NCBI GenBank assembly: GCA_964187785.1
Contig: OZ076409.1
Coordinates: 14,386,001 to 14,450,000, forward strand
Length of the DNA: 64,000 nucleotides
Direction: 5' to 3'
Source: Amphiscolops sp. MND2022
Taxonomy: Eukaryota
Part shown: positions 12,877-63,810 of the stretch, one piece after another
How positions within the stretch are numbered: the first letter of the stretch is position 1
Layout of the letters: each line of letters opens with the position of its first letter
Notes under the pieces: generated by a model
What the model was told of the DNA's origin: nothing
Seen by the model: the letters and a program-made list of their open reading frames with translations, nothing else
The model's database searches: none
Made by a program: the position numbers and the translations under genes

Positions 12877-12878
12877 TT

Positions 12879-28934: not shown

Positions 28935-29647
28935 TGTAACGTCCACCAGTCAACACCAAATTTTCGATGAAAAATTCGATCAAGAACCAAAAAATGTGCG
29001 AATCAAAATGGCCGACCTGGCAGGTCCTTAAAGCCCATAAAAAATGAAAGAGAGAACACGTGAACAAGAAGAACGACAAGAGATGATAAAGAAGTAGGCG
29101 ACTGACGACATGAAGATCCACACGGGACAGAATTCGAAGAACGCTACCCGGTGCTATGTCATCCCTGGGAAAGCAGAGCCATTCTAGAACTACATGACTG
29201 GATCCCCGAAAATCTACAAACAGTAACTCTATTTCCACTCGGGGCTTATCCCCCTTTATTTTGTTAATTTATATCAGAGCGTTTTGTTATTTTTCCCATG
29301 CCTGACCTTCTAGGTCGGCATTTCATGCCCATAACTGTCGAAATGAGATTTTTCGGATAAACACCTTTTTGGACCTCGGAAGTATGTAGGGGATAGCAGG
29401 AACGCGCTAAAAACCTTAGGATACGTTTTTACAGGCTTGTGGGGCGTGTCCGGACTTTGAGAGTGCCGGCACGTCGCCTCGGAGCTCTAATTAGAGGAGT
29501 CTCCTTAGACGTTAGAAAAGTCCCCCATGGAGACCATTTTGGGATCAAAAACTAGTGTCTAGGTATGTAGTAAGACAACGGTCTCCTGTTTAAGCATCCT
29601 AGGCATTGTCCCTCTTCCTAGATGTGCGCCGCTAGCCGGACGTTACA
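28935..29647 (+). repeat. 5' LTR of the giant Gypsy element
   Basis: Direct repeat of 47320-48032 with a 10-bp terminal inverted repeat. Confidence 0.98.
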
Positions 29648-29663
29648 TCTGGAATAGTTTTTA

Positions 29664-29680
29664 TGGCGACCACAGAGGGA
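29664..29680 (+). promoter_or_regulatory. Primer-binding site (tRNA-Arg-like), 16 nt downstream of the LTR
   Basis: TGGCGACCACAGAGGGA closely resembles the reverse complement of the 3' end of animal tRNA-Arg(TCG) (TGGCGACCACGAAGGGA). It is identical in the inverted copy at 55864-55880. Confidence 0.75.
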
Positions 29681-32656: not shown

Positions 32657-35600
32657 ATGGAACAACGCGAGACTAACGCCACCATGAGCGACTTCCATGC
32701 CACCAACCCTTTCGGAAGAAGAGCGGAAACCACAACCGAAGAAAACGAATGTAGATTAGATTCAGCCATAGCAGACATAATTTCAGAAGCTATGTCTGAC
32801 TTCGTACCGAGCCAGGAACAAAACGCAGAGATAGCCGTTGCCACTAGCCAGCCTAACTCCTCGCGAGCCTCCCCCGATAGCACCAATCTACCGGATAATA
32901 CTGAGAACACCACGCAAAGAAATACATGGCCTCCGCTGGAAGTCACTGACTACAGCTTGGAAAACTGGCCAAACTCCAACCAAGGGCCCACCAGTGAGCC
33001 CAGCATTGTTGATACCCCCAACGAACAAAATGGCACTCCAATGACTCCACGGGCGGACCCACGGACGGCGGAAGTCGAAAGGAACCCCCTGGGTTCCCAG
33101 GAGATGATCAATAGCGTAGGCGGGAATCCCTTCCGAAGCGGATATGCGCTACCGGAAGCACCGGCGAAAACGTCGAACAGGCCAGTGGAGAACTCGAAGA
33201 CGGACATAACAGAGAATCCGTTAAGATATGTTTTTCGAACGCCACCCTCGGTGACGCCAAAGATTAACTATGCGAATGCAAGTCGAACATCTCATACGCC
33301 AGACTCTCAAGCTAGCGCCGACACCAATCTTGACTCAACAATAACCAAAGCAAGGAAGGAAATGCAAACAGTTCGGGAAGACTTTCAGAGTAGTCTGGCT
33401 CAGCTAGCTCAAGTCCAGACGAGGCTGGCGAGGGAAAACAACGAACATGAGATGCGCGCCGACATGATAATGAGGGACATGGACGAGCTACGAAAAGGTC
33501 TGTTGGAAATGCAAGCGGAAGGGCGACAAAATCAAGGTCGACTGGAAGCGTCAATGGCATCTCTCAATGATCTGATTAAACAGAGAGAAACTACAGCGGA
33601 CGCTCGCATGGCCGAGATGTCTGCAATAATGAGAGAAAGAGACCGCCAAGCGGATGAACGCATGAAAGCAATGACAAACACGATGCAGCGCCGCGACATA
33701 GACTCCAATGTCCGCATGACGGACTTGATGATGGCAATGCAAGATTTGACATTGGGAGTGAAAGCAATCGTGTCGCAAGCCCCCGCGCAGCAAGCACAAA
33801 CGGCGCCGCGGATTCCCCAAAAAAATCAACAGACCGAAATGCCATCTACAAGCGAAGCTCCCCAACCTCATTATAGGACGGTGGCACAGCACACAGTGGA
33901 GCCTCCTAGGCCTCCAAAACTAGTGCCACCCGCAACGTACAGGCGTGACCTGTCTAAAGCTAGCAAGATGGCTAAAGTAACCCACACGGAATCACGAGAC
34001 GCAGGTACGGACCCAATGACAGACCCGCCGTCGTTTGACCAGTACGCTCGCGGAACATCAACCTCCGGCAACTTTCATTCCGCCGCCGACGAAACGAACA
34101 CCCGCAGGACCAGCTACTATACGGCCGATTCCAGCGCAGCATTCCGCCCACCTGCGCGACCGCAGACGTTCAGAGATTTCGTTCCGCGGCCAGTGGCCAC
34201 CAGTACGCAGCGTAAGATGACAAACAAGCGGAATCTGGAACAAGGCAAAGGCGAACATAGCGATATTGAAGAAATGCCCTCAATGACAGAAGAGACCCCA
34301 GACACGCCAAGAACTACCCAACGACAAGCACTAGCGGAAGCAATATCTACGGCCATGTCTAAAGGCTTGGAGCCGTTGCTCGCCGCCAAGGAATCTAAAA
34401 ACAAGCCCACGAAATATAGAGGAACCCGAGACGGAAACGCAGATGGATGGATGATGTTGATGAAACGCCATTTGGAAAAAGCACACCCCAAGGCGACCCC
34501 CCTCGATAAAGCGTGGACAATAATTGAGTATCTAGAGCATGAAGCCAGAGATTACATCACAAATAAGTCCGAAGCCGAGAGGGACACTGACGAAAAAGTA
34601 TTCGCGTTGCTGGCGCGTCGCTTTGGAACAGGTTCCAGCAAAATCCACATCCAACAGCAATTTAGAACCCGCAACCAGAATAGCGAGGAGGACTACATGC
34701 AATACCTTGACGCCCTCGAAGGCCTGCGTAGTCAAGGTTACCCCAATGAAGAGGTGACAGTTCGTCGATACGAAATCATGCAAAGATTCATTGAGGGAGT
34801 ACGCAACTTCGAACTAAAAAGGAACCTCGCGCTAATGTATGCACCGGAACAATACGTGGAAACCCCGCCAACAGTGGAAGCCCTCCGCTTCACAGTACAA
34901 CAATACTTACGCATGCGAGGCTCAACTCGTTCGGACAACTACCCAATGATGCCCCCTCCACAACAACAAGCCAACATCCAACAACCAAATCAGTCTCCAG
35001 TAGCACCCGCGCCTGCCCAAAAAATGCAACAACAACAGCCTCCCCAACCAGCAGCATACCAACAACAACCCATGCCACCGGCAGCCTATCGACAGCAACC
35101 CCAAAGAGCGTGCTTCAACTGCGGAGACCCATCGCACTTCGTGGTGGACTGCCCCCTGAAAGACCGTGCACGGAAGCCGGTACAACAGCAAGTGAACTCC
35201 TGTCACACGAACCCGACAGGTAGTTGGGTGTGCCCCTCCCAGCCACATGGCTTGAACTATGATGTTTTCCCAGCATCCCTACCAACCCAAGGCACAGTTG
35301 CCTTCTGCATTAATTGCGGCCGTACTGAGCACTCGGCGTCAGAATGCATGGCCTCGGAGCAAATGAATCACGAAGAACAAATCCGTGCAGCGTGGTATGC
35401 TCCTTCACCAAGTCGATTCGATGGCCTGAGCCAAGACGACCAAGTCCGGGTAATATCAGTAGCGGAAGATGGGGGTCCCTCCCGACCTGTAGTAGTCACT
35501 TGTGGCGAGAAACAAGTACTCACCACACTAGAGGCACCCGCCCCAGATTGCACAGAGACACTTATCTCGATACACTTGCTTCTCTCGGCCGAACAAAAAA

Positions 35601-38600
35601 CGCGACCCACGCTGACGCTATCGCAACTAAAGGAGGAATTATGCAGAAACGTGAACTATACTATCGCAGCGCGACCGCTCCCACATTTCGCGAGAGAAGA
35701 CGAAACGAAACTGGCCCCAATACAGAAAGTTAAGACCGTTTCTCCGGTGCCGGTAGCCATTAACGTAGACGGTGTAGACATGAAATTTGACGCTATCGTA
35801 GTCTTAGAAGGTCACTTCCCTCAGGGATTGTACTTGGGCCGCCAGGAGTTACGATGTTATAACATCGGAGTGCAAGATGCCCAGGGGGAGGCTCGTATTG
35901 ACGAACGGGCATCCCTGGTGGTTGCCTTTGGCAACACGATCCAGGAACCAATACCCTTGTACGGGATGATAGACACCGGTTCCGGTGTCTCGATTCTCTC
36001 CCTCAAAGCCTATCAAAAAATTGCATCACCCCACGCATTAAGCCTCCTACCATATGACATCCAACTGTATGCCGCCAATGGTAAAACCATCAACACCATC
36101 GGAATTGCCGAAAATGTTAGCTTCCAGTTGGGCGGATATACCCTCCGAACCAATTTCATAGTCATTGCCGATCACCTAGGCGCGGAAGACTTCCTACTTG
36201 GCAGAAACTTCTTGCGCACTTACAACGTTCTCGTGGACTTGACGGCCATGAGGGTCACAATACGCGACACCAAAGCGCCACGCCACTTCAAACCCGTCCA
36301 TGAGGTAAGTGATCATGAGCCATCCCTAGTGATATCCACCGAAAAAGTAGTCCTAGGCCCTTACGAGCGTAAGCTAGTACGAGCCCAAGTTATTTCTCAA
36401 AAGCACAACGAGTACCTTTTCCGAAACGTAATGATTCGCCCCCAGGGGGTATATAAACGATCCCCCTTTGTTTCAGAAGATACATTGACGTCTGTTGGAG
36501 ATGAAGGCATTGTCTTCATAGCCCTACGAAACACTACCCCCTCTGAAAACGTAACCATTCAAACCAAAACTGTCCTCGGTAAGGCAGAACCTACAAACTT
36601 TGTGTTACTACCTGTGGCTGCCGACACGGCAACCGAAATTGATAAACCTTTGTTTGAACAAGTTAATAAAGTTTATACCGAAGAGTGGTTAAACGAAACG
36701 AGTTCCGAATATAGTTCTTTTGCTCAAAACTTCTTGTCCTCTACTGAGATATCTGAAGAAGGATTATCGGAAAGCGAGAAGCGTGCTCAGACTGACCCAC
36801 AGTTACTAAAACCTATACCAGGTCCAGACCTCTCCTCCATCCTTTCTTCATGGGGGGAGGGAGCGAGAGATCAACTAGCAAGCGTCCTGAGCGAATACGA
36901 TGACCTTTTTATGAAACATAAAGCTGACATAGGGAGATGCAAAATAGCGAAACATCGTATAGAACTAGAGCCAGAAGCTATCCCACATAGAGAAGGCGCT
37001 CGGCGCATGTCCCCAGATAAGGCAGCAAAGGCTAATCAAGAGGTGCGAAATCTACTGGCCCTTGGCCTAATTCAACCCTCCTATTCACCGTGGGCAAGCG
37101 GAATAGTCATGGTCAAAAAGAAAACAGGCGAACTTCGCTTCTGTTGCGACTTCCGACCGCTCAACGACGTAACGGTCAAGGACGCGTTCCCATTGCCCAG
37201 GATTGATGAAAGTCTATCCCGGATAGGCAATGCAAAAATTTTCACAAGTATTGACCTAGCGTGGGCCTTCTGGCAGATACCGCTAAAGAAGCGCGATAGA
37301 AGGAAAACAGCATTTGCCTGTGAACTGGGCTTGTTCGAATGGCGACGCATGCCCTTTGGGCTATGCAATGCATCGGCCACATTCCAGCGCTCCATTACAC
37401 GTGCCCTGCAACGGATCCAGCAACGACACGGGAGTGTCGTCATGGCTTACATCGACGACATAGTTATCGCCACGGAAACCATAGAAGACCACATCGTACG
37501 AATCAAGGAAGTATTCGAGTGTCTCCGAGAGGCTGGATTCAAGATGCGTGCCGAGAAATGTGACTTCATGCGCACGGAGACAAAGTACCTGGGGCGAGTG
37601 GTGTCCTCGGAAGGCATCAGACCAGACCCCGAAGCAATAGTCAAGATCCAAGAATGGATGCCCCCGAGAAACAAAGAGGAGCTTCAGAGCTTCCTAGGAT
37701 TCGCAAACTATTACCGAGACTTTGTACCATTCCATGCAGCCAAAGTACAACCCCTGCAGGAGTTGCTCAAGAAGAGTCAGCATTTCCACTGGGAAATAAA
37801 ACACCAAGAAGCCTTCGATGCAGTAAAGGAAGCACTAGCAAACGCGACCGCCTTGGCAGCCCCAAATGAAGACGGACGGTTCGTGCTCGACACCGATGCT
37901 AGTGCGGTAGCGATAGCTGGAATCCTGCACCAGGAACAGGAACACAATGGGAAAACCATTTTACGGCCAATAGTCTTCGGGAGCAAGTCCTTAACGAAGA
38001 CGCAGCTGAACTATGGAGCACCCAAGTTGGAAATGTACGCAGTATTTTACTTCATAGAGAAATTCCACTCATACCTCGCAGGCCGAGAGTTCACGCTCCG
38101 TGTGGACAATCAGGCCCTGTCATGGCTTAAAACGTACTCCATGGACCAAGCCATGATAGGTCGCTGGATAGCCCGTCTGGATCAATACAACTTCAAGACG
38201 ATCCACCGACCTCGCACACAGCATCGAAACGTGGACGGCCTCAGCAAACGGACCAACGACTATGTGCACCGAGAGAAAATCCTTGAGAAGTTACCGGAAG
38301 TGAGCGAAGGATTCAACTTCATGACCAAAGAAGACTATGAAGCACTCCCCACCGTGCCATACTTTGACAAACACGGACGCCCAATACCAAACCATCCAGA
38401 GCTCCCACCGGAAGCTCGAGCCCAACTCCCACTGCTGTATATCTTGGGAAAAAGGCCCAAAACGAGCTTGCAAGAACCCCCGGTGGATGATGCCCCATGG
38501 TACCCCCAAATACAATGGGAAGCGACTCCAACCACAGATGAGGATCACCGACCAAATCACATCCTCAGCATCACGACCGAAGTGCCACCGGCACGCCTAG

Positions 38601-41600
38601 ACACTGGAGAGCCTGATCCCATGCTTGAAGGGATGCCACCCGAATGCCAAAGACAAGCCCACGCCCTTAGAACAATCGGGACGGAGCTGCACGAACACTT
38701 TCTGACTAGACGTGGCCTCAAGGACCTGCACCTAGCACAAAATAGGGATGTACACCTCCTAGCGCTGAAGAAACTCATGAACGGCGAACCACTGGAAGAC
38801 ACAATGTTCCCCGAAGACGTACAGGACTTCGCGCGACGCTACTTCCATCAAAAAAAAGACCTCCTCTTCCTGAACCCAGACGACATCCTCTGTGTCAACT
38901 ATGTTCCGCAACAACGTGCGCTGCACGTGCGACCGTGTATGATAGTCATGCCACAACTATATCAACACGAGATTCTGTATAGGGCACACGACGAATCGGG
39001 ACATCAAGGCGTAGGGAAGGTGCTAGCAAGAGTACAAGAGCGGCACACCTGGCCGGGCATCAAGCGTGACATAGTCAATCACATCAAGCACTGCTTAACT
39101 TGCCAACAAACAAAACACCCCGCCGGGAACCCCTGCTACCCCTTGCAGAACATCAACAGCAGCAACTTCAACGACTTAGTACAATTCGACCACCTCAAAC
39201 TATGCAAGACCGAATCGGGGAACACCGGTCTCTTGGTCATGATAGACCACTTCACGAAATTCGCCGAGGCTATCCCGTGTGCCCACGACGAATATGATGC
39301 TCAAACCACAGCTAAGATCATCCTTAATAAATGGTTTGCCAGGCACGGCACCCCAGCACGCATGCAATCCGACAATGCCACGAATTTCACAGCTGAAATC
39401 GCACAGGAGCTAATGAAAGCCTCGCAAGTCACTAAAGTGACATCCACTCCAGCGCATCCTCGAGGGAATGGACTCGTGGAAAGGCAGAACCGAACGTTAC
39501 TCACACTGCTCAGAGTCTACACTTCGCGACGAATGCAGGATTGGGATGAGCACATTGATGGAATCCTCGGTGCGTACAATTCAACTAGACACGCAACCAC
39601 GGGATTCTCTCCCTATATGCTCCAACACGGAGCCGAGAAATCCATTCCCTTGTCATTCATCTACCCAGAATTTGCTGCGCGAGGATTCGATTCCAAAGAA
39701 GAATTTGTAGAACATCTTCTAGCCAGACAACAAGAAATCCATGAACTTGTCAGAAGAAATACACACCAAGCACAGCTACGGCAGAAGCTGAAGTTTGACC
39801 GCCACCTGAAGGCCAAAGCGCACGCCGTAGGCGATGCGGTGTGGGTATTCTGCCATATCATACCCAAGGGTGGCACCCGCAAGCTGATTCGCGCATGGCG
39901 CGGACCCCACAAGGTGACTGACGTGTTACAAGACGGACGATTATATGTGTTAGACACAGGCCAAAAGGTCCATTACGAAAGATTAAAAAAGCACGTGCCT
40001 GCCCCTTGGGACTGGGCCGCACACCAGCCCTTTGGGCCGGATCAAAACGTAGCCATCATTGCTGATCCGTACGTAGAAGAAAGCAATGAAGAGATAGCGT
40101 CCGACATCTCCCAAGATTCTTTCCTACCGGAACAACTTCCGGAAGCATCCTTCGAAATGGAGCCAACAGGATCGATTCCACCTCGTACCATTCAGACTCG
40201 TACCCAAACGGCACTCGAGCAAGGAATACCCCGAAGAAGATTCAGCCACTTCGGATACCCCTCTAACTCAGATTCCGAAAGAGAGGAAAATGAGCCGCCG
40301 GTCCAGAGCCCACCACCGCCAGTAGTGTTCCCCGACTTGGACGACCTAGAACCACTATACTCCGACCAGGAGGAAATTCAGCCAGCCGTACCTACAAGTC
40401 TGATACCATCACCCTCAGGGACCTCAGCCCCCCTACTATCCAATCCGTCCCTAACGGACACCCTGAGTAACTTTCCCTTGTTTGGCCCCCAATTGGAGGA
40501 CCCAATCGACCCGATAGAAATTAAACCAAAGTCAGAAACTGAGAACGAAGAAGAGATAACCTATCGCAGTCCAAGCCATTGCTCAACACAACCCGATACC
40601 ACGAATCGCAGAGGACGGCCTCGAGGCCGACCACCAGGTCGAGGACGACCCCGCGCTATACCATCCAGTAGAACCACGACATCGTCGCGAACTCAAACCG
40701 CACGATCCAGAAGAGGCCCTAGGACAAGAATGAGCACTCGTGCACCCCCTCGAAAACTAGACCGAGCGATGACTCTACCAGAAATACCCGAAAGCCAACA
40801 ACCACCAGATGTCCAGGACTCAGAACCGAGACCACCATCGCGAACATCACGATATCAACTGCGAGCTAATAGAGCACCACGATATAAGTGTGGAACCTGT
40901 GGTTCCCGCAACTGTAGTTGCGTCAAGCATCTAACTCGCGATTCACCGGACAACCGATTGGCCCGGGGAGCGGTAGTCCCTGCCAGGGATCTCTTGATGG
41001 CCAGGACACATTATCACCCACAACATGAGATCTTAACCGTGCAAGCCCAGCGAGAAAAATTGGAGACACCCCCGCTAGTACACCATTTGATCATCACGGT
41101 GGAAAAAACTTTCACTAGTGTGGAGCGAGAAGTGATACCACCGCTGGAAGAAACACTCAAAGCAATGCACGCGACATCTCCCTCCGACTGCCCGACTTAC
41201 CGATTCAAAGAATGGACACCATCCCATCGAGGCGGTCTAGAATTCACCCTACATGCCATCATACCGCCTTTGCCACCCTCGATGACGTTCGGCGAGCTAG
41301 CGAAAGAGGATAGTAGCCCGGAGATGATTCGCTGTATCACTGCACACCAACTGTGGGAGAAATATCACATTGCCTCCCCGCCGGGAGACATATATCAGCC
41401 CACCAATGGATGGTGGCTACTTGTCACCTCTCTAGACGCAACGACATTGGTATCTCCCACAACTTTACTGATGTGCTTAGAAAGCTTGCGTACGGTAACC
41501 GAACCTGAGAACACGCTTTGTTTCCACATGGCCGATATTTATCGTGGCAAGTTCCTAAGCCAACATTGGCTACAATTAATAGCGGTCGTCTTCTGCCGAC

Positions 41601-42325
41601 AGGCGAAGATACACTTCTTGGATCGACAATTTTATACACCGGAAAAACCCGTCACAGTTAGCGAAGCACTCTCGATAGTACACGATTGGTCATCTACAAA
41701 CTTGGGAGATAGACCTCTACGCCGAACCGTCTGGGAAGACCGAAAGGCAATCTTGCAGCATTTGGCACCCCGACCCACCGATGATCAGAGCAAAACCACC
41801 GGCAAATGGCTCATAACCCAGCCCAAAACCAGACCGAATTACTTACCTTGGATAAGTTATGACAATACAGATATCCTGCAGGCACCTGGCACTGTGATAC
41901 TATGCTGCCCTGCGGATTTGCTCTCTTACTCTGCCACAATCCGTTACGTCATTCGCGAATACGGTCAAGAAAACATATTTCGTCTAAGACCGTCAGTTGG
42001 CACCGCAATTCGCTTAACCCGCTCGCCAACTGCACCCTGGAATAACGAAATCTTCCTTCTATGTACCAGAGCATCGAACAAGCATCCACTCTTACATGAA
42101 GTACTCCATGCGTGTTTGACAAATTTGATAACCCAGCTCCATCGAAACCACATTACCAGAATCCACTTGCCCATCTATGATCCTGAGCGATCGATGAACC
42201 TCCTTCCAGCCTGGTACGCCACACTACGCGACCACTTTGCAGACCACAACATTACAATAATTTTGCACGATCGCGTCTATGTCACGATAGCATCGATTAC
42301 CTCTGCCAATTTTGGCGGTAGTTAA
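32657..42325 (+). CDS. gag-pol: Gag-Pol polyprotein (~3222 aa): coiled coil, capsid-like Gag, two CCHC knuckles, pseudo-protease plus protease, dUTPase-like fold, RT, RNase H, integrase, AT-hooks, macrodomain-like C-terminus
   Basis: Single open frame, ATG in GCCATGG context. Knuckles CFNCGDPSHFVVDC and CINCGRTEHSASEC; PR MIDTGSG...FLLGRNFL; RT SPWAS, FCCDFRPLN, MPFGL, AYIDD; RH LDTDAS; IN HDESGH...CLTC, QFDH, SDNATNF, NGLVERQN, WRGPH. Confidence 0.97.
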   Translation: MEQRETNATMSDFHATNPFGRRAETTTEENECRLDSAIADIISEAMSDFVPSQEQNAEIAVATSQPNSSRASPDSTNLPDNTENTTQRNTWPPLEVTDYSLENWPNSNQGPTSEPSIVDTPNEQNGTPMTPRADPRTAEVERNPLGSQEMINSVGGNPFRSGYALPEAPAKTSNRPVENSKTDITENPLRYVFRTPPSVTPKINYANASRTSHTPDSQASADTNLDSTITKARKEMQTVREDFQSSLAQLAQVQTRLARENNEHEMRADMIMRDMDELRKGLLEMQAEGRQNQGRLEASMASLNDLIKQRETTADARMAEMSAIMRERDRQADERMKAMTNTMQRRDIDSNVRMTDLMMAMQDLTLGVKAIVSQAPAQQAQTAPRIPQKNQQTEMPSTSEAPQPHYRTVAQHTVEPPRPPKLVPPATYRRDLSKASKMAKVTHTESRDAGTDPMTDPPSFDQYARGTSTSGNFHSAADETNTRRTSYYTADSSAAFRPPARPQTFRDFVPRPVATSTQRKMTNKRNLEQGKGEHSDIEEMPSMTEETPDTPRTTQRQALAEAISTAMSKGLEPLLAAKESKNKPTKYRGTRDGNADGWMMLMKRHLEKAHPKATPLDKAWTIIEYLEHEARDYITNKSEAERDTDEKVFALLARRFGTGSSKIHIQQQFRTRNQNSEEDYMQYLDALEGLRSQGYPNEEVTVRRYEIMQRFIEGVRNFELKRNLALMYAPEQYVETPPTVEALRFTVQQYLRMRGSTRSDNYPMMPPPQQQANIQQPNQSPVAPAPAQKMQQQQPPQPAAYQQQPMPPAAYRQQPQRACFNCGDPSHFVVDCPLKDRARKPVQQQVNSCHTNPTGSWVCPSQPHGLNYDVFPASLPTQGTVAFCINCGRTEHSASECMASEQMNHEEQIRAAWYAPSPSRFDGLSQDDQVRVISVAEDGGPSRPVVVTCGEKQVLTTLEAPAPDCTETLISIHLLLSAEQKTRPTLTLSQLKEELCRNVNYTIAARPLPHFAREDETKLAPIQKVKTVSPVPVAINVDGVDMKFDAIVVLEGHFPQGLYLGRQELRCYNIGVQDAQGEARIDERASLVVAFGNTIQEPIPLYGMIDTGSGVSILSLKAYQKIASPHALSLLPYDIQLYAANGKTINTIGIAENVSFQLGGYTLRTNFIVIADHLGAEDFLLGRNFLRTYNVLVDLTAMRVTIRDTKAPRHFKPVHEVSDHEPSLVISTEKVVLGPYERKLVRAQVISQKHNEYLFRNVMIRPQGVYKRSPFVSEDTLTSVGDEGIVFIALRNTTPSENVTIQTKTVLGKAEPTNFVLLPVAADTATEIDKPLFEQVNKVYTEEWLNETSSEYSSFAQNFLSSTEISEEGLSESEKRAQTDPQLLKPIPGPDLSSILSSWGEGARDQLASVLSEYDDLFMKHKADIGRCKIAKHRIELEPEAIPHREGARRMSPDKAAKANQEVRNLLALGLIQPSYSPWASGIVMVKKKTGELRFCCDFRPLNDVTVKDAFPLPRIDESLSRIGNAKIFTSIDLAWAFWQIPLKKRDRRKTAFACELGLFEWRRMPFGLCNASATFQRSITRALQRIQQRHGSVVMAYIDDIVIATETIEDHIVRIKEVFECLREAGFKMRAEKCDFMRTETKYLGRVVSSEGIRPDPEAIVKIQEWMPPRNKEELQSFLGFANYYRDFVPFHAAKVQPLQELLKKSQHFHWEIKHQEAFDAVKEALANATALAAPNEDGRFVLDTDASAVAIAGILHQEQEHNGKTILRPIVFGSKSLTKTQLNYGAPKLEMYAVFYFIEKFHSYLAGREFTLRVDNQALSWLKTYSMDQAMIGRWIARLDQYNFKTIHRPRTQHRNVDGLSKRTNDYVHREKILEKLPEVSEGFNFMTKEDYEALPTVPYFDKHGRPIPNHPELPPEARAQLPLLYILGKRPKTSLQEPPVDDAPWYPQIQWEATPTTDEDHRPNHILSITTEVPPARLDTGEPDPMLEGMPPECQRQAHALRTIGTELHEHFLTRRGLKDLHLAQNRDVHLLALKKLMNGEPLEDTMFPEDVQDFARRYFHQKKDLLFLNPDDILCVNYVPQQRALHVRPCMIVMPQLYQHEILYRAHDESGHQGVGKVLARVQERHTWPGIKRDIVNHIKHCLTCQQTKHPAGNPCYPLQNINSSNFNDLVQFDHLKLCKTESGNTGLLVMIDHFTKFAEAIPCAHDEYDAQTTAKIILNKWFARHGTPARMQSDNATNFTAEIAQELMKASQVTKVTSTPAHPRGNGLVERQNRTLLTLLRVYTSRRMQDWDEHIDGILGAYNSTRHATTGFSPYMLQHGAEKSIPLSFIYPEFAARGFDSKEEFVEHLLARQQEIHELVRRNTHQAQLRQKLKFDRHLKAKAHAVGDAVWVFCHIIPKGGTRKLIRAWRGPHKVTDVLQDGRLYVLDTGQKVHYERLKKHVPAPWDWAAHQPFGPDQNVAIIADPYVEESNEEIASDISQDSFLPEQLPEASFEMEPTGSIPPRTIQTRTQTALEQGIPRRRFSHFGYPSNSDSEREENEPPVQSPPPPVVFPDLDDLEPLYSDQEEIQPAVPTSLIPSPSGTSAPLLSNPSLTDTLSNFPLFGPQLEDPIDPIEIKPKSETENEEEITYRSPSHCSTQPDTTNRRGRPRGRPPGRGRPRAIPSSRTTTSSRTQTARSRRGPRTRMSTRAPPRKLDRAMTLPEIPESQQPPDVQDSEPRPPSRTSRYQLRANRAPRYKCGTCGSRNCSCVKHLTRDSPDNRLARGAVVPARDLLMARTHYHPQHEILTVQAQREKLETPPLVHHLIITVEKTFTSVEREVIPPLEETLKAMHATSPSDCPTYRFKEWTPSHRGGLEFTLHAIIPPLPPSMTFGELAKEDSSPEMIRCITAHQLWEKYHIASPPGDIYQPTNGWWLLVTSLDATTLVSPTTLLMCLESLRTVTEPENTLCFHMADIYRGKFLSQHWLQLIAVVFCRQAKIHFLDRQFYTPEKPVTVSEALSIVHDWSSTNLGDRPLRRTVWEDRKAILQHLAPRPTDDQSKTTGKWLITQPKTRPNYLPWISYDNTDILQAPGTVILCCPADLLSYSATIRYVIREYGQENIFRLRPSVGTAIRLTRSPTAPWNNEIFLLCTRASNKHPLLHEVLHACLTNLITQLHRNHITRIHLPIYDPERSMNLLPAWYATLRDHFADHNITIILHDRVYVTIASITSANFGGS

Positions 42326-42656
42326 GAGCACGTCTCGCTCTCTAATTGGCAGATCAGGCCACTGGCCTTTTGCATTGCCTTTACTAAATTCGAAGCACCT
42401 TAAAATTTCAACAAAGCCGCGCCGATAAGCGCAAATTTTAGTCCTGACCACTGGAAACTTTTTAACCTTATGTTTGTGTGTTCGTCCTAAAAAGTTTAAC
42501 TGCCCACCCGTCTATGTGATGTCTTATCTCCAACTGTGACCTGTTTTTCAGTTTTGTCCTGTTGCCTCGCCTCTGCGCGGCCCCCCTACTTATCACGCCA
42601 AATCAGTCTTGCCATCACAATCTTCGGTGCTAAACATTCCTTTATCATCGTTTCCA

Positions 42657-45600
42657 ATGGACCCATCTGCGCGACACCGCCTGCCTGCACCCCAGAACGC
42701 TGCGCGTGCCCAACCATCCGCAAGGAACGACCCACCTGCAATGATGAGCGAAATAGATGGTCGAGTCGACCAACTAGCTCTTGTCCAAGACACTCTACTA
42801 AACGGAGCGACACCCACAATGATCACTGGCTTCGCCATGATCATCGCCCAAACCCAAGCTCAAGCAGAGTACCCTGATGTTAGCTTCACTATCACCAGCC
42901 GAGTCGGCCCGATAGAACGCTCTGCCACTTTTCGCGACGGTACCTGGCAAGGGTATGACTTGACCCACAGCCTCATAGATCCTCGCTCCCACGTAGTCTA
43001 TGGAGAGCCTACTAGGCCCCCCATGGACCAAGAACGATCACTCCGTATTTCACAATCAGCACTACAGACGTTACAGACGCAAACTACGACACCGTTACCC
43101 TCTCCGCACCCGGTGCAGTTCAGCTGCACACTGCCAATCATGCCACCCCCAGTGCTGACACCGCCCATGCCCCTGGCATCGGAAGGCATTCGATTACTGA
43201 CCACCCCATCTTCTACCTTCATGCCTCCTTCTACCTTTCAGGGGGGAGGGGTGCAAGTAGACAATACAACAAGTGCTACCCTGAGCGAAGAACAACCCAG
43301 GAGAACGGTAACGTTCAAGGACTCATATGAAGAATTAACTCAGACGTCCTCCAGAGCTGAATCACAAGTCTCGGAACCTCTACAAGCCTCAGAACCAGCC
43401 AGCCTAGTAGGCTTCCAAATGGACCCACAATTCCGAGAACGTCAGCGAGAACAACAAAAAGCTGAAAGTAAGGCAGCCAACACTGTGGTAGACCTCAGGG
43501 AGAAAATAAAAGCTGGAAAGCGAGCCAGAGAGGCGACCATGCAAGGTAAACAATCGAGCTCGACCAGTGTCCCGCAACCCTCGTCTGCCTCACCCACACA
43601 ACCAGAAACAAGGAGACCGAGAATAACACACGAACTCCTAACACATTCAGAAAAACGGCAGCTGGATATCACTGCACGCGACGCACTGCGTCTGCAGCGG
43701 GAAATACCAACCACAACGTCACCAGAAGACCCTCTACGACAGAAATTCGAGACCGCAACGGGAACTGGGGACCTCGCCACAAGGCAGAAAATAGAGAAAG
43801 CCACAGTGGGAGTACTCTACAATCGCCCCGTCAAGAAACCAGTGTTCACTCGAGACGGATGCCCCCCATGGTTCAACCGCATGCGAGCAGAATTGGAGAG
43901 AGTAAACTCAACATACATGCGTGTTCCTGACAACTTCCTCCGACAGCGCCCTGGCCGCTTCGACGAAGATCGCTTGCGAACTAAAAACTATGCGAGGGAC
44001 CCCATTACAATCCTACCCATGGGAAAGGACCTTTTGCAGAAAACCAGAATAGCCTTCTTCGTCGACTCGACGATGAAGTCTTCATTCAACTCCCACAATA
44101 CCCTCATGGATGTCAGAATAATGAACATGCCCTGTACAACACTGAACGAAATGGCAGAGGTGACCGACAAAGTATTCACCCAAGCGGGAACAGAGACCAT
44201 CCCATTACCTCCGTTGCTGGTATATTCGAATGTGATAGATCACCTAGCTCTGCGAGGGACCCTGGAATTTTTCCGACCAGACCACGAAAGGTTTACTGAG
44301 GGGTTCGTCACCGACGAAGTAACCAACTACGTGGAGACAATGGCGAATATTGCCCAAACTATGCGCAGAAGGAAAGCTGTCACTGGAACGGTATTTATGT
44401 CACCTCCAGGCTACGTGCACCTTCCCCGGACCCTTCAGCAATTCTTGTACCTAGTAATGGAGGCAGCGTACGCAAGAGATCTGGCTTTCTACATTGTGGC
44501 CCCCAATTTACGCATCAGCAATAATAGCTGGCGCCCTTGTGAAGCCTCATACCCAGCCTTCATTGCTGAAGTCTCAAAGGCCCTTCAATCATACGTCGGT
44601 TACCGCGGAAACTCCCAAATGGTAGTAGATGAAGCAACAGCATTCGACTACGGGATGGAAATGGCTCGTCGATCATTGAACGAGCGTGGAGACCGAATCG
44701 TGAATGATCCAAATGAAGGTGAGCGCAACAACCTGGTGGATAACCTCTGGTTTGAACGCCGGGACGAATCGACCATAGACGAGAAAACACATGAACCCAA
44801 GTTTCACAAGGAACTCACGAATCTAATGAAAGAAACCGAAACGATTCAAGGTGATAGAAAGAATTCCTCCATCTTCCCCATAGCACAAATATCATTGGAT
44901 GCTGAACCTGGGCAAAGATCACCCACATTAGCCATGCTGTTGATACTGGCTCAAGACATTGTACAGAAGAATATTCAAGAGCCGACACACACGTACCAAA
45001 CATGGCACGATCAACTACGAGAACCTCTGGGCCAAGTCGCGGACCGACTGGGCATAACATTTCCCGTATTTCTCCACAACATCTCTCCCTTCTGGCTTCC
45101 TTCCCTAGTACAGGCCGAGTACGGCCTGGATGAGCAGCGAATGCGACTTTACATGGAGGCCAGGGAAAGAGCGACCATTAGTGAAATACTAGCGTATATG
45201 ATGGCTGTGGGGTTGACCATGATGTACAGAGGACCGTCAGCCCTCATACAAAAGTTCGTGCTCAACAAGGGAGGCTCAGCCCTGTTCAGCTTCCTAGTCT
45301 TTTCGCAGAATCAAAGAAGTTGGATATCTGCGCTCATTGAAACTCTGGACCCAGCGGGTTCCTTGAAATTAAAAGCGCAACTGGACTTAAACATCCAAGC
45401 ACTTCTAGTGTGGATTTATTCCACCTGGGTCAATGTCTCAGGCGTTATGCACCCTCTGGATGAGTGCCCAGCTATTAACCGAGACCCCAATCAACTTCCT
45501 GGGTTCCTGTTCCCTACACAAGTTGCAACGTTGATGCTCGTGGAAACAGAGGACCTAATACCCCTCATTGCTCCGGTAGTCTGGCCTATCTTCGGCGCAG

Positions 45601-46751
45601 TTATGGCCCTGCGCTATCCAACGCAGGCCCTGCGAGTGGCAGCGGTGAGCCCATCCCTCTCGATTCTACACTTCGTGACCTCTGATGGGCCCCTTCAGGG
45701 TCCCACCTATCAATCAGTGATACACAGCTTTGCCAACTTGCGACCTCCCATGGCATACACCGTAATCAAAGACCGCCAACAAGTGGAGCACAACTATCTC
45801 ACCTTGATCAAGGCGAGAGCACGTAGCTCGCTCCCTTTGCCAATGGAAATACATCCGGTAGTTTGGCTACATACCCCCATTGATCCAAATAATGGAGCAG
45901 TGGCGACATTTGAAGGGTGGGACGTGCCAGTTGTCCTGCGTATCTTGAGAACAATTATCCAAAGATTGGGTGGTCGTCGAAAAGGAGAAGAACCTACTAG
46001 GTTATTGTATCCCTATGCGTGTGACACTTCCAGAATATATTGTACAAGAACAGAACCCCGCGAGCATACCGCCAGAATCTTGAATACCATTACATGTTGG
46101 GCTCAGCCAGAGCTCGTGGACCTCGCTATACACCAGACCTTCCAACAGCTGCCAACAACCATTCCAACAGTAGCAAAAGAACCAAGCAAGAAAGATTTGC
46201 CCGTGAACACTGACGTTCCCAGCAACCCGCGTATGGCACTAGAGATATTCGTGCGTCTGCATGGTCTCCAGCGAGAACGTACTCGAGCCGTGGGCGAAGA
46301 ATACGCTAGGGGAATACGAACGTTCAGGCAGCTGTTCACCCAATATGGCCATCAAGAATTAGCGGACGGCCTGCCGAACTTGGAATCAGTCGAAGCCATC
46401 CCAGGGATTAGCGATTTGAGCGAAGCTGCCTCTGGCAGCTCTCGCACCGTCTTTCCCACACCCCACATCAGTCAAGACTCCAATGAAATATTGGTGGAAG
46501 GGGTACAAGATGATGTGCCAGGCGTCATGCCACCATCAGAGGAACCTATGACTGACAATAACTTCACGTTCTCTGATGCCACTACTCCTGTAAGAGACGA
46601 AGTGGAGACCAATATCTCGAACATGGAGGCAGCGGACATAGAGTCAGAACTCAATAACTTGCTGACCATAGATGAAGAATATCAGAATACGGTGGATGCC
46701 TTGGGCAACACCTCAGTCCAAGAAGCCCCACAGAACCAACTGTTGGAATAA
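42657..46751 (+). CDS. ORF2 of the giant Gypsy element, ~1364 aa, unknown function; contains a degenerate SGNH-like domain; not a recognisable env
   Basis: Uninterrupted 4.1-kb sense ORF between pol and the 3' LTR. No N-terminal signal peptide or Cys-rich ectodomain. SGNH-like pattern at about 44046-44585. Confidence 0.9.
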   Translation: MDPSARHRLPAPQNAARAQPSARNDPPAMMSEIDGRVDQLALVQDTLLNGATPTMITGFAMIIAQTQAQAEYPDVSFTITSRVGPIERSATFRDGTWQGYDLTHSLIDPRSHVVYGEPTRPPMDQERSLRISQSALQTLQTQTTTPLPSPHPVQFSCTLPIMPPPVLTPPMPLASEGIRLLTTPSSTFMPPSTFQGGGVQVDNTTSATLSEEQPRRTVTFKDSYEELTQTSSRAESQVSEPLQASEPASLVGFQMDPQFRERQREQQKAESKAANTVVDLREKIKAGKRAREATMQGKQSSSTSVPQPSSASPTQPETRRPRITHELLTHSEKRQLDITARDALRLQREIPTTTSPEDPLRQKFETATGTGDLATRQKIEKATVGVLYNRPVKKPVFTRDGCPPWFNRMRAELERVNSTYMRVPDNFLRQRPGRFDEDRLRTKNYARDPITILPMGKDLLQKTRIAFFVDSTMKSSFNSHNTLMDVRIMNMPCTTLNEMAEVTDKVFTQAGTETIPLPPLLVYSNVIDHLALRGTLEFFRPDHERFTEGFVTDEVTNYVETMANIAQTMRRRKAVTGTVFMSPPGYVHLPRTLQQFLYLVMEAAYARDLAFYIVAPNLRISNNSWRPCEASYPAFIAEVSKALQSYVGYRGNSQMVVDEATAFDYGMEMARRSLNERGDRIVNDPNEGERNNLVDNLWFERRDESTIDEKTHEPKFHKELTNLMKETETIQGDRKNSSIFPIAQISLDAEPGQRSPTLAMLLILAQDIVQKNIQEPTHTYQTWHDQLREPLGQVADRLGITFPVFLHNISPFWLPSLVQAEYGLDEQRMRLYMEARERATISEILAYMMAVGLTMMYRGPSALIQKFVLNKGGSALFSFLVFSQNQRSWISALIETLDPAGSLKLKAQLDLNIQALLVWIYSTWVNVSGVMHPLDECPAINRDPNQLPGFLFPTQVATLMLVETEDLIPLIAPVVWPIFGAVMALRYPTQALRVAAVSPSLSILHFVTSDGPLQGPTYQSVIHSFANLRPPMAYTVIKDRQQVEHNYLTLIKARARSSLPLPMEIHPVVWLHTPIDPNNGAVATFEGWDVPVVLRILRTIIQRLGGRRKGEEPTRLLYPYACDTSRIYCTRTEPREHTARILNTITCWAQPELVDLAIHQTFQQLPTTIPTVAKEPSKKDLPVNTDVPSNPRMALEIFVRLHGLQRERTRAVGEEYARGIRTFRQLFTQYGHQELADGLPNLESVEAIPGISDLSEAASGSSRTVFPTPHISQDSNEILVEGVQDDVPGVMPPSEEPMTDNNFTFSDATTPVRDEVETNISNMEAADIESELNNLLTIDEEYQNTVDALGNTSVQEAPQNQLLE

Positions 46752-47311
46752 AGGAGTCCTCTGGACCCCCAAGACTGTTAGAACACAATTGAGCATAAAG
46801 GACCCTATCATCAATGTACTGATGCCAATTCTTGATTTTAGTTGTGCTACACCATCTTGCTGGTGCTGAAAACTTTCAGTGCAATAAACCTTAATTCCTG
46901 AGTTTTGTTTGATGTATATTTTACTTTGCTACCAATGCAACAATGCAATATAGCTACATCCCCTGGGTGGGTCCCGGTTCGGTGCCCTCCCGTTTTGATT
47001 TGAATTTGAAACTTCTACCAAGCCCAAAAGTTGTTGTTACTCACTTGGCCGCGCAGGGGCCCAATTTTAGAAAAAGAAATTTTAACTTGAACTGAGTAAT
47101 TAGTGAAAAAACCTTTTTTTTTAGAAAAAATCCGACTGTATAGTTTTTAACCTAAAAATCAGTGCTTTTTAAATTCGATGGCTTTAGGGTGCTAGACATG
47201 CAGTACTGAAGCGAACAACATAGCTTTGATGTAAGACCTTTTCTGTGAATCTCAGAGTACCCTTTGGGTGCGAGCATCCTCTCGTTTGCCGAGGACGACA
47301 AACTACGGCCC

Positions 47312-47319
47312 GGGGAGGA
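47312..47319 (+). promoter_or_regulatory. Polypurine tract of the giant Gypsy element
   Basis: GGGGAGGA abuts the 3' LTR. Confidence 0.75.
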
Positions 47320-48032
47320 TGTAACGTCCACCAGTCAACACCAAATTTTCGATGAAAAATTCGATCAAGAACCAAAAAATGTGCGAATCAAAATGGCCGA
47401 CCTGGCAGGTCCTTAAAGCCCATAAAAAATGAAAGAGAGAACACGTGAACAAGAAGAACGACAAGAGATGATAAAGAAGTAGGCGACTGACGACATGAAG
47501 ATCCACACGTGACAGAATTCGAAGAACGCTACCCGGTGCTATGTCATCCCTGGGAAAGCAGAGCCATTCTAGAACTACATGACTGGATCCCCGAAAATCT
47601 ACAAACAGTAACTCTATTTCCACTCGGGGCTTATCCCCCTTTATTTTGTTAATTTATATCAGAGCGTTTTGTTATTTTTCCCATGCCTGACCTTCTAGGT
47701 CGGCATTTCATGCCCATAACTGTCGAAATGAGATTTTTCGGATAAACACCTTTTTGGACCTCGGAAGTATGTAGGGGATAGCAGGAACGCGCTAAAAACC
47801 TTAGGATACGTTTTTACAGGCTTGTGGGGCGTGTCCGGACTTTGAGAGTGCCGGCACGTCGCCTCGGAGCTCTAATTAGAGGAGTCTCCTTAGACGTTAG
47901 AAAAGTCCCCCATGGAGACCATTTTGGGATCAAAAACTAGTGTCTAGGTATGTAGTAAGACAACGGTCTCCTGTTTAAGCATCCTAGGCATTGTCCCTCT
48001 TCCTAGATGTGCGCCGCTAGCCGGACGTTACA
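47320..48032 (+). repeat. 3' LTR of the giant Gypsy element
   Basis: Direct repeat of 28935-29647. Confidence 0.98.
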
Positions 48033-50823
48033 TACAGAATTTAGCACCGAATCAATTTTGTTGGTAGCATTTGTTGTTCATAGTCTTTATGTATTAATTT
48101 GAGCTTGTTTGAGAAAAGTGCCAAGTTTTGTCATTTCGTTAATGGTTTGTAAGTTTTCAGAATGTTTTTCAGAAATAAGGCATCTCAAAATGGGAGTCAA
48201 AACGTGTCAAATGTTTTCCAGTTTTCAAAGGCTGTGTGCAATTTTTGAAAGTTTTCTTTGGAATAAGATTATTAACTACACTCGAGCGCTAACACATGTT
48301 GGCCCAAAATTATTCCAGGGCACAAAATATCCCGAAGCTCAGCTCAGCTGGCGTTGTTCCCTTGAATCTCGTTGGTTTTTGGTTTTACAGTTCTTGCAAG
48401 ACAGCACGGCGTGATGGTTTGAAGATTCGGCTCTTGTGAGAGGACAAAATCTCCGAACGCTCTTTATTACCTTCTTTTTGTTCGTATGTACCACTGCGGA
48501 GACAACTGGAAGTTTTATCTTGTATTTAGTGAACGCTTTCAAACGAAAAATCCAGGTATCATTGTGAATATTTTAGGATACACGTCATTGGACCGATTTG
48601 AGTTTTCTTCATAGAAAAACTGACCTATTTTATTCCATAATAACAGACGTCAAGTCGTTCGAAGCTTGCAGTAAGCCGGGAACTTTCTTTGTTATTTTGA
48701 TTTCATGAAAACGGTTTGGTTAGTTTTACTAATTGATGAATTTGTTCACTTTTTTGGTACTTGTAACCCTAACTTTTTGTCGGCACTTTGGAACTAAAAC
48801 TTAGCTATTATTGTGGCTTTTGGTCGTTTTTTTTCAATCCTGTTAAAGTAGCTGAAAATTTTCTACAGAAGACATAATATCTGATGAGGTCCAAAAAAAC
48901 TCAAAGCATCCGTCCTTCAATTTTTGACATATTCTTATTACAAATCTCTGTTAGTTTTTTTATAGCATTCAATGCAACTTTTTTTGGAAACATTCTTCAA
49001 GTTCACAAAAAGTTTCTCGGTTTGGCTTTTCAAAATATTGAGAAAAGTAGGAAAAATTTTTTCTAGCCCAAATGATCCTACTGTTTTCGGCACTGGACTG
49101 TGAGGTTTTGATAACATTTTCAAAATCAGTTCTTCGACGTTTTGACGTATTTAGCGCCTATTGAACCTTAAGCTGAGCTCTGGCTTATGTCGTTTTTGTA
49201 TTGGTTGTCGAAAACTATCAATCAGTGTTTTGGAGTTTCTCAGAGAGTCTTTTATGCTCAAAATGTCATCAGTTTGTTCCTAAATGTTGATGTTTTCAGT
49301 TGCATGTCTTGCAAACAGCACCAACAAAGATGAAGCTTTTCCTGGTTAAGGTAGATTCAAGGAAGATTTTTAGTCTATGCATATGCTGACTTGATTGCAA
49401 AAAATTATTTGCGCGTAATCGTTAGGCGACAATGTTTGACAAACAGTGTACAGATACGTGTACTTATAATCTGTTTTTAGAATCTTCAGTTTGATTAATT
49501 CCGGCTTAAAATCGACAGAACAAGCTTTTGCCCAATGAAAGTTGACTATTACATTGGTTACTTGAGACATTCACTTTCTTTATGATTCTATTTTGTCTTT
49601 TAGTTACTTAATTTTTAGGATTTGCACCAATTTGCAAAGTTGAATCGAACCCTAGTTTAATCTGCAAGAAAAATCCGCTTGTTCAATAAGGTTGCCAAGC
49701 ACTTTTAGCATGCTTTTAGGAGTTCCATCGAAAATCATTCGTGCTGAATAATTCCCTGATGCAAAGCTAATTCTTCAGGTGTTTTTTAGTATTTCTATAC
49801 AATGTGGCGAGGTCTGTGAGAAGCATCCAAAAAGTTCAAAACGAAATTTGCGCGAATTTTCGCTAACCTTTACGGTCAAAACCTCATGTTCTGCAAAGGA
49901 GACACTAATATTCAAAATATACAATTTTCTAGGTGTGCTAAACGGGATACAAAATAAAATTCGTAGTAAGAAAATGATTGGAAAAACTAGATAATTACAG
50001 TTTCAGCTTCATTTTAAAACAAACTTTTTTGAACCATATTTGTGAATCACTTTTTTGCTTTGTGTACTTACCATTTGAACCACTTTGTGCGGACTCCGTT
50101 TTCGATTTTTGCAACAAGCGTATTCGAAAACTCACGATCTGAATTTGACAGAAGGCATTGTTGCTTCCCAATTGCGAAACATTGTTTGCCAAACATTGAA
50201 AGTGTTTTTTCCTATATTTGAACTTGTGTTCGCCCATGTTGAGCTTTCCTTGAGAATCTGTACAGATCTGTGAGCCTTTTTTCCTTAAGGATCTGTAAAG
50301 ATCGTGCCACTGCTACGTAAGGACAACTGCAGATCTGCAAGGATCTTTAAGGATGTTCAAGGATTTTCTGTACAGATCGTTCAGGAAATTTTTTCGCGTA
50401 GCTTCTGGGAAACAATGTATTGCATTTTTGGGCTTCTTCAACAAGTACTTTTGCTGACCAAGGCTCAGTCAGTTAAAAATCTCCCACACTCAAAATTCTT
50501 GAGCAGGAAAACTTGTCCCCATCAAGGTAATTTTGGTGTCTGGGGAAAGTTTGGTATAGGTTTTGCACGGTAATTTATCTATTTCACTCGAACTTTCCAG
50601 AAGTTGCTGTTCAACTTTGAGCGGCTCGTTTGGTATATTGACTTCGATTTGACGGATGTAATTGTACATGTGGCTACCGTCTGGGTTGGCAGAGGCGTTG
50701 ATAAAGGAATGTGGTTGTAATATTTCGGGAACATGGTTAGCTGGAGTAGTTTTAGTAATTGCTGGAAACTTAGAATACATTATAGTAATTTATTGGTCAT
50801 TTTTGCATGGTTAACTTACGACC

Positions 50824-58050: not shown

Positions 58051-58253
58051 TGTAGAGGTGAAAGTTACATAGTCTAGACAGACTTAATTGAACATTCAAG
58101 TACCTGCCTATGAACTATAAAGTACATCCTCATCATTTAGTAGTTGCCTTCGATGCTATATGGATAGATACTGATACTCTAGTACTCTTTGCTATAGAGA
58201 ACATTCTCTTCTTAATTTGAACTTCTTAATTCTATCTTTTCTGCGAGTCTACA
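58051..58253 (+). repeat. 5' LTR (203 bp)
   Basis: Matches 63811-64000 with one mismatch seen. Confidence 0.95.
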
Positions 58254-58256
58254 ACA

Positions 58257-58270
58257 TGGCGCAGTCAGCA
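58257..58270 (+). promoter_or_regulatory. Primer-binding site (tRNA-Ser-like)
   Basis: TGGCGCAGTCAGCA lies 3 nt after the LTR and resembles the complement of the tRNA-Ser 3' end. Confidence 0.65.
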
Positions 58271-58278
58271 ATTTGAAC

Positions 58279-63663: not shown

Positions 63664-63810
63664 CAACTCTCGAACTATTCTAGATCCAAAGCCAAAAAGA
63701 CAGAAGAAGATCGTACACGTCATCCGGAACACAGTCAACATACAGAAGGCCGGAAACAAGAACGCCTGAGACATTCAAGAATAGTTCCCACAATCCCGAA
63801 GAGGGGGGAA

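Follow-up and report, generated by a model that had tools for sequence, protein, structure and literature searches.

A gene with a predicted SGNH-fold domain, under purifying selection in the env position of a 19.1-kb LTR retroelement of Amphiscolops

The subject of this analysis is a window of 64,000 nucleotides from Amphiscolops sp. MND2022 (contig OZ076409.1, positions 14,386,001 to 14,450,000, forward strand; all positions below are those of the window). It contains a complete long terminal repeat (LTR) retroelement of 19.1 kb, at 28935-48032, which houses, in the env position behind gag-pol, an open reading frame (ORF) of 1364 amino acids (aa), termed ORF2. ORF2 is a real gene under strong purifying selection, and an SGNH fold of its most conserved domain is well supported as a prediction. 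The catalytic histidine of this esterase-like domain is likely gone. An earlier sequence-only reading had described a 1364-aa ORF in this place as a non-env protein with a degenerate SGNH fold; its coordinates are exact and all eight peptides that it quoted are present.

Selection on ORF2 and descent of the gene

Codon comparisons (Nei-Gojobori) were made on the 74 of 89 loci with frames of 900 or more codons. Between families, the ratio of non-synonymous to synonymous substitution rates (dN/dS) of the SGNH domain was 0.01-0.11 in 10 of 12 pairs, the two others being saturated. These values lie far below 1, in agreement with the selected gene that the sequence-only reading had assumed. The helical region further downstream (aa 761-1230) gave 0.05-0.25 in 11 of 12 pairs, and the integrase, taken as a control, 0.03-0.05 in 8 of 10 pairs among those listed and 0.16-0.18 in two near-saturated ones. 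Within the window's own family, the corresponding polymorphism ratio (pN/pS) was 0.08 for shared variants and 0.26 for variants seen in a single copy. Conservation within ORF2 is highest in the SGNH region, where 8 representatives agree fully in 47 of 201 columns.

ORF2 identity follows integrase identity (Spearman 0.89, over 28 non-independent pairs) and ORF2 lies behind gag-pol in all three distant-family copies examined, which together indicate that it is an old, vertically kept component of the lineage. Families down to about 27% identity retain it. Some loci show a mismatch between the two genes: the window and locus L114 are 96% identical in integrase but 59% in ORF2, and L112 and L114 are 96% and 85% identical, respectively. 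Recombination between families or uneven rates could possibly explain these values.

In the 1.07-Gb genome, 3138 first-look candidates for the SGNH region were found. The 125 that were scored are the best matches, and hence a biased sample; their identity is 96-100% throughout, and the frame is still open over 1386-1412 codons in about 99. The LTRs of 13 pairs are 99.4-100% identical, so the element family is young and recently active.

Beyond these copies, the distant relatives (P0163, P0162, P0123 and others) are 26-39% identical to their nearest sampled copy. P0068 and similar proteins of 30% identity come from the same genome as the window. P0123, the only distant relative searched against this genome, reached at best 36-37% and apparently does not come from it, and the P0163-type proteins, carried by short ENA contigs, are 26-28% identical to any sampled copy. 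It is thus likely, judging by this divergence, that the family extends to other organisms. No related locus was found in viral and metagenome contigs, and P0100, labelled as a protein of a bacterial metagenome-assembled genome on an 816-bp contig, is probably a contamination.

The predicted SGNH domain and its pocket

ORF2 starts 331 nt past the gag-pol stop and ends 568 nt ahead of the 3' LTR. Its features are the following.

42544..42551, + strand: putative splice-acceptor-like site TTTTTCAG, 113 nt ahead of the ORF2 start codon
42657..46751, + strand: ORF2, env position; 1364 aa counted from the first ATG, the open frame having 1403 codons
42729..43046, + strand: conserved N-terminal domain, aa ~25-130 (tblastn, alignment)
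43518..43529, + strand: single basic motif KRAR in a low-complexity linker, nuclear localisation signal (NLS)-like
44019..44621, + strand: SGNH-fold domain, aa 455-655 (predicted structure)
44067-44069, + strand: Ser471 codon
44532-44534, + strand: Arg626 codon (His position)
44901..46346, + strand: all-helical C-terminal region, aa ~749-1230 (low-confidence model)
45555..45611, + strand: most hydrophobic segment, aa 967-985, with a conserved PxFG motif
46347..46748, + strand: tail rich in acidic residues (28 D/E, 2 K/R) and poorly conserved; distant families lack the acidity

The starts of the five SGNH-like blocks lie at 44046, 44121, 44214, 44388 and 44529 (aa 464, 489, 520, 578 and 625). 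Homologue searches gave 161 proteins, and the 61 sequences covering the domain were aligned for folding. The AlphaFold2 model of aa 432-768 obtained with this alignment has a predicted local distance difference test (pLDDT) score of 75-97 per ten-residue block over model residues 31-220 (aa 462-651). Its strands and helices are ordered as in SGNH proteins, and the predicted five-strand alpha/beta domain is the flavodoxin-like alpha/beta/alpha sandwich with five parallel strands of the SGNH/GDSL superfamily. The sequence-only reading had made its fold assignment depend on such a sandwich.

Structural comparison by VIA-align with 48,161 chains gave the same answer. The model matched PAF-acetylhydrolase 1bwp with Z 12.4 (170 aligned residues, 3.3 Å) and GDSL lipase 3p94 also with Z 12.4 (178 aligned, 3.9 Å); 63 chains reached Z >= 8, and the 50 matches listed are almost all esterases, GDSL proteins, acetyltransferases or OSK, the SGNH domain of Drosophila Oskar. 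OSK itself (5a4a) occupies rank 47 (Z 8.9, 156 residues, 3.8 Å), and the esterase of the retrotransposon ZfL2-1 is missing from these top 50, the search using one chain per cluster. With Foldseek nothing reached E <= 0.001, yet SGNH proteins once more head the list, the best of them at E 0.03 and the ZfL2-1 ORF1 esterase (PDB 4c1b) at rank 12 (E 0.056). At the sequence level, Pfam assigned no family to ORF2 and no SGNH family to any of the 61 aligned members, and profile searches of the PDB gave only a designed pentatricopeptide repeat (PPR) protein at E 0.3, or nothing. In the ESM Atlas, the SGNH region fell among unnamed haptophyte clusters; at rank 12 stood a lead to Lipase_GDSL_2, shared by 15% of the members.

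Active-site residues were counted in 191 profile matches from 290 proteins, many of them close copies or decayed fragments and therefore non-independent; the register of the Gly, Asn and His positions is inferred from motifs and secondary structure. Block I keeps the Asp-Ser nucleophile motif, with Asp470 in 126/133, Ser471 in 127/133 and Thr472 in 122/133. The oxyanion Gly of block II, in a register inferred from the motif, is present in only 4/152 and replaced by Cys493 in the window. Block III, placed by secondary structure, reads N-V-I-D instead of Gly-x-Asn-Asp: Asp528 is kept (144/157), and the Asn position is hydrophobic (Ile, Met, Leu, Phe or Val) in 152/157. Two further residues of this block are conserved, Asn525 (145/156) and His529 (142/155). 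In block V, the Asp-x-x-His motif has given way to Arg626 (107/121; His in 3/121), with no conserved acid three residues ahead and with Pro627 behind (106/122). Asn525, His529, Arg626, Pro627 and Tyr632 are invariant in the 74 long genomic frames, from families down to 27% identity. In the most distant group, P0163/P0284 (about 26% identity), block II still has its canonical Gly (MPGST), in support of the block assignment of the sequence-only reading; position 529 is Asp there, and the Arg is present. The nucleophile position and the Arg at the base position therefore appear to be the oldest conserved pair.

Of the four catalytic blocks, three (II, III and V) depart from the SGNH pattern. Retention of Ser, loss of most oxyanion Gly/Asn and replacement of the His by Arg make a remodelled pocket likely, rather than decay. 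The canonical triad is lost, as had been suggested from the letters, with the oxyanion Gly/Asn mostly absent and Arg at the His position; on the other hand, the term degenerate understates a domain in which Ser, Asn525, Asp528 and Arg are near-invariant, unlike OSK, where Asp stands in place of Ser (PMC10792757). His529 was considered as an invariant relocated base, a candidacy weakened by Asp in P0163/P0284 and Tyr in P0065. An Arg beside Ser at an oxyanion site would, given known SGNH chemistry, suit phosphate or carboxylate binding better than general-base catalysis. The domain as modelled thus likely binds an anionic ligand rather than hydrolysing esters.

The rest of the protein differs in part from the earlier description. 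The N-terminal ~130 aa, described as disordered, form a conserved domain detected in distant families (tblastn E 1e-9 to 1e-15), and P0163 has a similar N-terminus. One KRAR or RKR motif occurs in all 10 family representatives, which are related to each other, and in 5-24% of shuffles; we take KRAR to belong to the NLS-like class. The stretch just before the SGNH domain (aa 401-454) is basic, with an isoelectric point (pI) of 10.2, and the domain itself has a pI of 6.9 (6.2-9.3 in six diverse relatives). The model of the helical region is of low confidence (mean pLDDT 60, predicted template modelling score 0.40, best over aa ~750-930) and has no match at E <= 0.001 in the PDB or in a viral structure library, the best Z being 6.4 over 64 residues; this does not show a new fold. 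The ESM Atlas returned mixed HEAT-repeat families for it, marked by the tool as probably wrong. The acidic tail noted earlier is found in the window copy and does not extend to distant families. As for the three hydrophobic helices that had been named, aa 967-985 passes the usual transmembrane threshold (Kyte-Doolittle 2.18) and the two others stay below it (1.32 and 1.28). This segment, the only and doubtful hydrophobic membrane candidate of ORF2, scores 1.8-2.4 in 10 of 11 representatives; it holds three prolines in the window copy and a Glu in the distant relatives P0163 and P0122, so that a buried helix seems more likely than a single membrane anchor.

Candidate roles of the ORF2 protein

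Judged by its sequence features, ORF2 is not env. It has no signal peptide-like start, no furin site (no RxK/RR), no C-terminal anchor and no Cys-rich ectodomain, with 8 Cys in all. Pfam searches, and structural searches of the PDB and a viral library with the low-confidence model of the helical region, gave no match to a known fusogen or host gene, in line with the sequence-only reading. The acceptor-like site TTTTTCAG is aligned in all five nearer families, and the distant-family copies have TTTTTAG at -22 (3/3). This conservation suggests that ORF2 is expressed from a spliced sub-genomic mRNA, which we consider likely.

We tentatively propose, with a probability of roughly 0.4, that ORF2 is a soluble, spliced-mRNA-derived intracellular protein which handles, between nucleus and cytoplasm, the ~18-kb RNA of the element that encodes it, in the manner of Rev/CERV or of Oskar. 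The element would produce an unspliced ~18-kb RNA and, by splicing at 42551, an ORF2 mRNA. The soluble protein could then reach the nucleus via its KRAR motif, or RNA granules, and aid the export, protection or localisation of the unspliced genomic RNA. Its Ser/Arg pocket, with Arg in place of the general base and the oxyanion Gly/Asn mostly gone, might hold a phosphate or carboxylate, and the helical region could act as a protein-binding scaffold. There are precedents: CERV, which the LTR element Cer1 makes from a spliced mRNA, mediates the export of genomic RNA (PMC10309623), and OSK, a dead SGNH fold, binds RNA (PMC5785220).

Several points weigh against this proposal. The likeness to CERV is one of function only, and OSK came only at rank 47 (Z 8.9), behind active esterases. 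A pI of 6.9, not a basic one, makes a poor case for direct RNA binding by the SGNH domain; indeed, this neutral value weakens simple RNA-binding and simple membrane-binding readings alike. The NLS-like motif, found in up to 24% of shuffles, is not evident in P0163, the most distant relative. Moreover, the residue register rests on motifs and secondary structure, and a retained Ser would also be expected of an enzyme. The sequence-only reading had drawn both membrane and RNA binding from analogy; the domain pI speaks against the latter and, set beside 10.8 in ZfL2-1 and the Glu inside the hydrophobic segment of P0163 and P0122, against the former.

Alternatively, ORF2 could be a cytoplasmic lipid or membrane adaptor, its Ser/Arg pocket holding a phospholipid head or a fatty-acid carboxylate and its helical region (helix 967-985) tethering particles, either ribonucleoprotein or virus-like, to membranes inside the cell; such a role has been put forward for the ZfL2-1 esterase. 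The latter binds anionic phospholipids and liposomes despite active-site mutations, the liposomes mainly via surface charge (PMC3905857), and it ranks in the Foldseek rows; the hydropathy of segment 967-985 (1.8-2.4 in 10/11 representatives) and the basic stretch at aa 401-454 (pI 10.2) would also fit. Nevertheless, the domain pI of 6.9 versus 10.8 in ZfL2-1, the Glu within the segment in P0163 and P0122, its three prolines in the window copy and the lack of a signal peptide make such an adaptor somewhat unlikely. A rewired enzyme, in which Ser471 would be aided by His529 or Arg626 in a slow deacylase or acyltransferase acting on a host defence or chromatin target, would account for the conservation of Ser471 (127/133), His529 (142/155) and Asn525 (145/156) in the most conserved part of the protein. 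Rearranged and chimeric triads occur in the SGNH fold (PMC10792757), and CgnD, matched with Z 12.2, is a slow hydrolase (PMC10070186). Yet position 529 holds Asp in P0163/P0284 and Tyr in P0065, no conserved acid precedes the block V position and the oxyanion Gly/Asn are mostly lost, and we regard an enzyme as unlikely.

It is very improbable that ORF2 replaces an envelope by letting particles pass from cell to cell or into the germline. Its env position, an env-like acceptor site, one hydrophobic segment and the very high copy number (3138 first-look candidates) are compatible with this idea, which Rodriguez et al. left formally open for GDSL ORF3s (PMC5408684). However, a signal peptide, a furin site and a conserved Cys pattern are all missing from ORF2, and the helical region gave no match at E <= 0.001 in the PDB or viral library, a weak negative for a class I-III fusion fold given the low-confidence model; the env-independent transfer that the sequence-only reading had advanced by analogy finds no support. 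That ORF2 is a passenger, either a captured host gene fragment or a decaying esterase without function, is hardly credible. Between families it does diverge faster than the integrase (29-31% versus 67-70% identity), but the selection data contradict this view (dN/dS 0.01-0.11; pN/pS 0.08 for shared variants in the window's family), about 99 of the best 125 copies are open over 1386-1412 codons, and each genomic context examined is a retroelement. A bolder and rather speculative scenario would be that of an undescribed giant LTR lineage with its own integration geometry, which captured an SGNH esterase and a TARG1 macrodomain and turned them into binding modules, the SGNH protein being an Oskar-like factor that directs the element's RNA to germ plasm or protects it against silencing. 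If true, such a self-encoded factor would account for a mass expansion without env.

Among known systems, ORF2 is closest in position to ORF3 of Vesta, the LTR retrotransposons of bdelloid rotifers, for which a GDSL/SGNH gene in the env position has been published (Rodriguez et al. 2017, PMC5408684), a case missed by the sequence-only reading. In both, an SGNH gene of no known function lies downstream of pol and replaces env in a retrovirus-like LTR element. Vesta ORF3, as described there, keeps the invariant catalytic residues, measures ~1.3 kb and shows no clear departure from neutrality within its genome, whereas ORF2, compared by description, is 4.1 kb long, multi-domain, has a conserved Arg for His and is under strong purifying selection. 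The Athena-L Penelope-like elements also carry retroelement-borne SGNH proteins, GDSL derivatives described as lacking catalytic residues; these belong to another retroelement class, are grouped with PC-esterases and were likewise compared by description (PMC5408684). An SGNH domain is also shared with the ORF1p esterase of ZfL2-1, CR1, L2 and RTEX elements (Schneider et al. 2013, PMC3905857), but that of ZfL2-1 has an active triad, a pI of 10.8 and a gag-like position in non-LTR elements, behind a coiled coil. OSK resembles ORF2 as an SGNH fold without the triad, yet it has Asp in place of Ser and is part of a host gene with a LOTUS domain (PMC10792757), whereas in ORF2 the Ser is retained and Pfam finds no LOTUS domain, so that ORF2 is not OSK-like. 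CERV of C. elegans Cer1 is a large accessory protein of an LTR element, made from spliced mRNA and needed for genomic RNA export (PMC10309623); here the resemblance is a functional analogy, the splicing and nuclear location of ORF2 being themselves inferred. By these analogies, ORF2 may belong with the accessory ORF3 class of LTR elements in how it works.

A description of the ORF2-bearing lineage was not found in the literature searched, with Repbase, subscription papers and supplements outside the search here and below. Ever since SGNH domains came to light in the CR1/L2 esterases and the rotifer ORF3s, it has been asked what they do for retrotransposons. ORF2 offers a natural experiment in this respect: in a young, abundant family, selection on the SGNH domain is almost as strong as on the integrase, yet the catalytic His is probably gone, which could separate binding from catalysis at a defined pocket. 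With it comes a helical region of ~480 aa that has no recognised fold.

The host element, its integration and its neighbours

The element that carries ORF2 is laid out as follows; its internal part measures 17.7 kb.

28932..28934, + strand: 3-bp target-site duplication (TAC), left copy (pair L077/L076)
28935..29647, + strand: 5' LTR, 713 bp, TG...CA, 1 mismatch with the 3' LTR
29648..32656, + strand: 3-kb leader, ATG-depleted, without sense ORF >50 aa
29664..29679, + strand: primer-binding-site-like motif TGGCGACCACAGAGGG, 16 nt past the LTR
32657..42325, + strand: single gag-pol ORF, 3222 codons (Pfam and motifs)
41864..42268, + strand: putative macrodomain, degenerate and TARG1/OARD1-like, closing Pol (hhalign)
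47312..47319, + strand: polypurine tract GGGGAGGA
47320..48032, + strand: 3' LTR, 713 bp
48033..48035, + strand: right copy of the target-site duplication (TAC)

According to Pfam, gag-pol contains CCHC knuckles, protease, reverse transcriptase, RNase H and integrase in Gypsy order, followed by a long C-terminal extension. The reverse transcriptase-RNase H part is nearest in the PDB to 4ol8 and Ty3 Gag-Pol 7q5b (E 2e-76 to 5e-76). This domain order, the CCHC gag, the TG...CA LTRs, the primer-binding-site-like motif and the polypurine tract are those of Ty3/Gypsy (Metaviridae-type) elements, except that the target-site duplications are of 3 bp instead of 4-6 bp. The motif TGGCGACCACAGAGGG recurs behind the 5' LTR in two distant-family copies. 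The leader counts 11 ATG, the gag start included, against 48 expected from base composition; distant families have comparably long leaders between LTR and gag. A 6.8-kb LTR pair was considered as a reverse-transcribed spliced RNA and rejected, being an internal deletion with other breakpoints.

Duplications of 3 bp next to TG...CA ends are clear in 15 of 16 insertions (12 pairs and 3 solo LTRs; L076-L105). The sixteenth has a rearranged end, and one LTR pair fits 5 bp (ATATA) as well. The two readable distant-family copies (L054/L056 and L057/L059) also have 3 bp, whereas the same measurement gives 4 bp for a neighbouring BEL/Pao element, used as a control. A 3-bp duplication is reported as a hallmark of Troyka, other LTR elements making 4-6 bp (Kojima 2025, PMC12440569), and it is shared here with Troyka/Kuafuorterviruses (PMC12440569, PMC11673190). 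Membership in Troyka was nevertheless rejected, since termini, zinc knuckle, GPY/F-like motif and size all differ: Troyka, as described, has CG...CG ends and CX2CX8-10HX4C knuckles, lacks a GPY/F motif, and combines 100-400-bp LTRs with an internal part of at most 7.7 kb, whereas the present element has TG...CA ends, a CX2CX4HX4C knuckle twice, RGPH (a GPH motif) after the integrase, 713-bp LTRs and 17.7 kb of internal sequence. Nothing was found in the literature searched on non-Troyka LTR elements with 3-bp duplications. The ORF2-bearing lineage would be a second one with this property, and annotation tools expecting 4-6 bp would overlook it.

The Pol extension likely ends in a degenerate TARG1-type macrodomain. 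Direct Pfam and PDB searches with this domain gave no match. It aligned with macrodomains of other LTR elements of the same genome by hhalign (probability 69%, E 4.4e-5, 128 columns), and these in turn match human OARD1 (E 2e-42). An hmmsearch gave E 1e-5 among 20 chosen sequences. Its region has a dN/dS of 0.06-0.18. The 200 aa ahead of it resemble, by eye, a second, more decayed copy. The literature searched held nothing on macrodomains in Gypsy elements. At least 4 other Gypsy-type families of the same genome (L127-L143) have TARG1/OARD1-like macrodomains in Pol, in the RNase H-integrase gap or after the integrase.

Other elements lie around. Window positions 1-1330, with L052/L053, hold the 3' end of a distant-family relative just upstream, with an ORF2 ~30% identical in a 1439-codon frame and interrupted LTRs. 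The BEL/Pao element at 12627-19089 has 250-bp LTRs, a 4-bp duplication (CTAG) and broken frames. An inverted LTR fragment with adjacent leader, at 55754-56186, is 92% identical to the LTR of the ORF2-bearing family. Finally, a further, broken Gypsy element at 58051-64000 has a Cys/His motif (CTRCGRFSNGELCDTH) behind its integrase.

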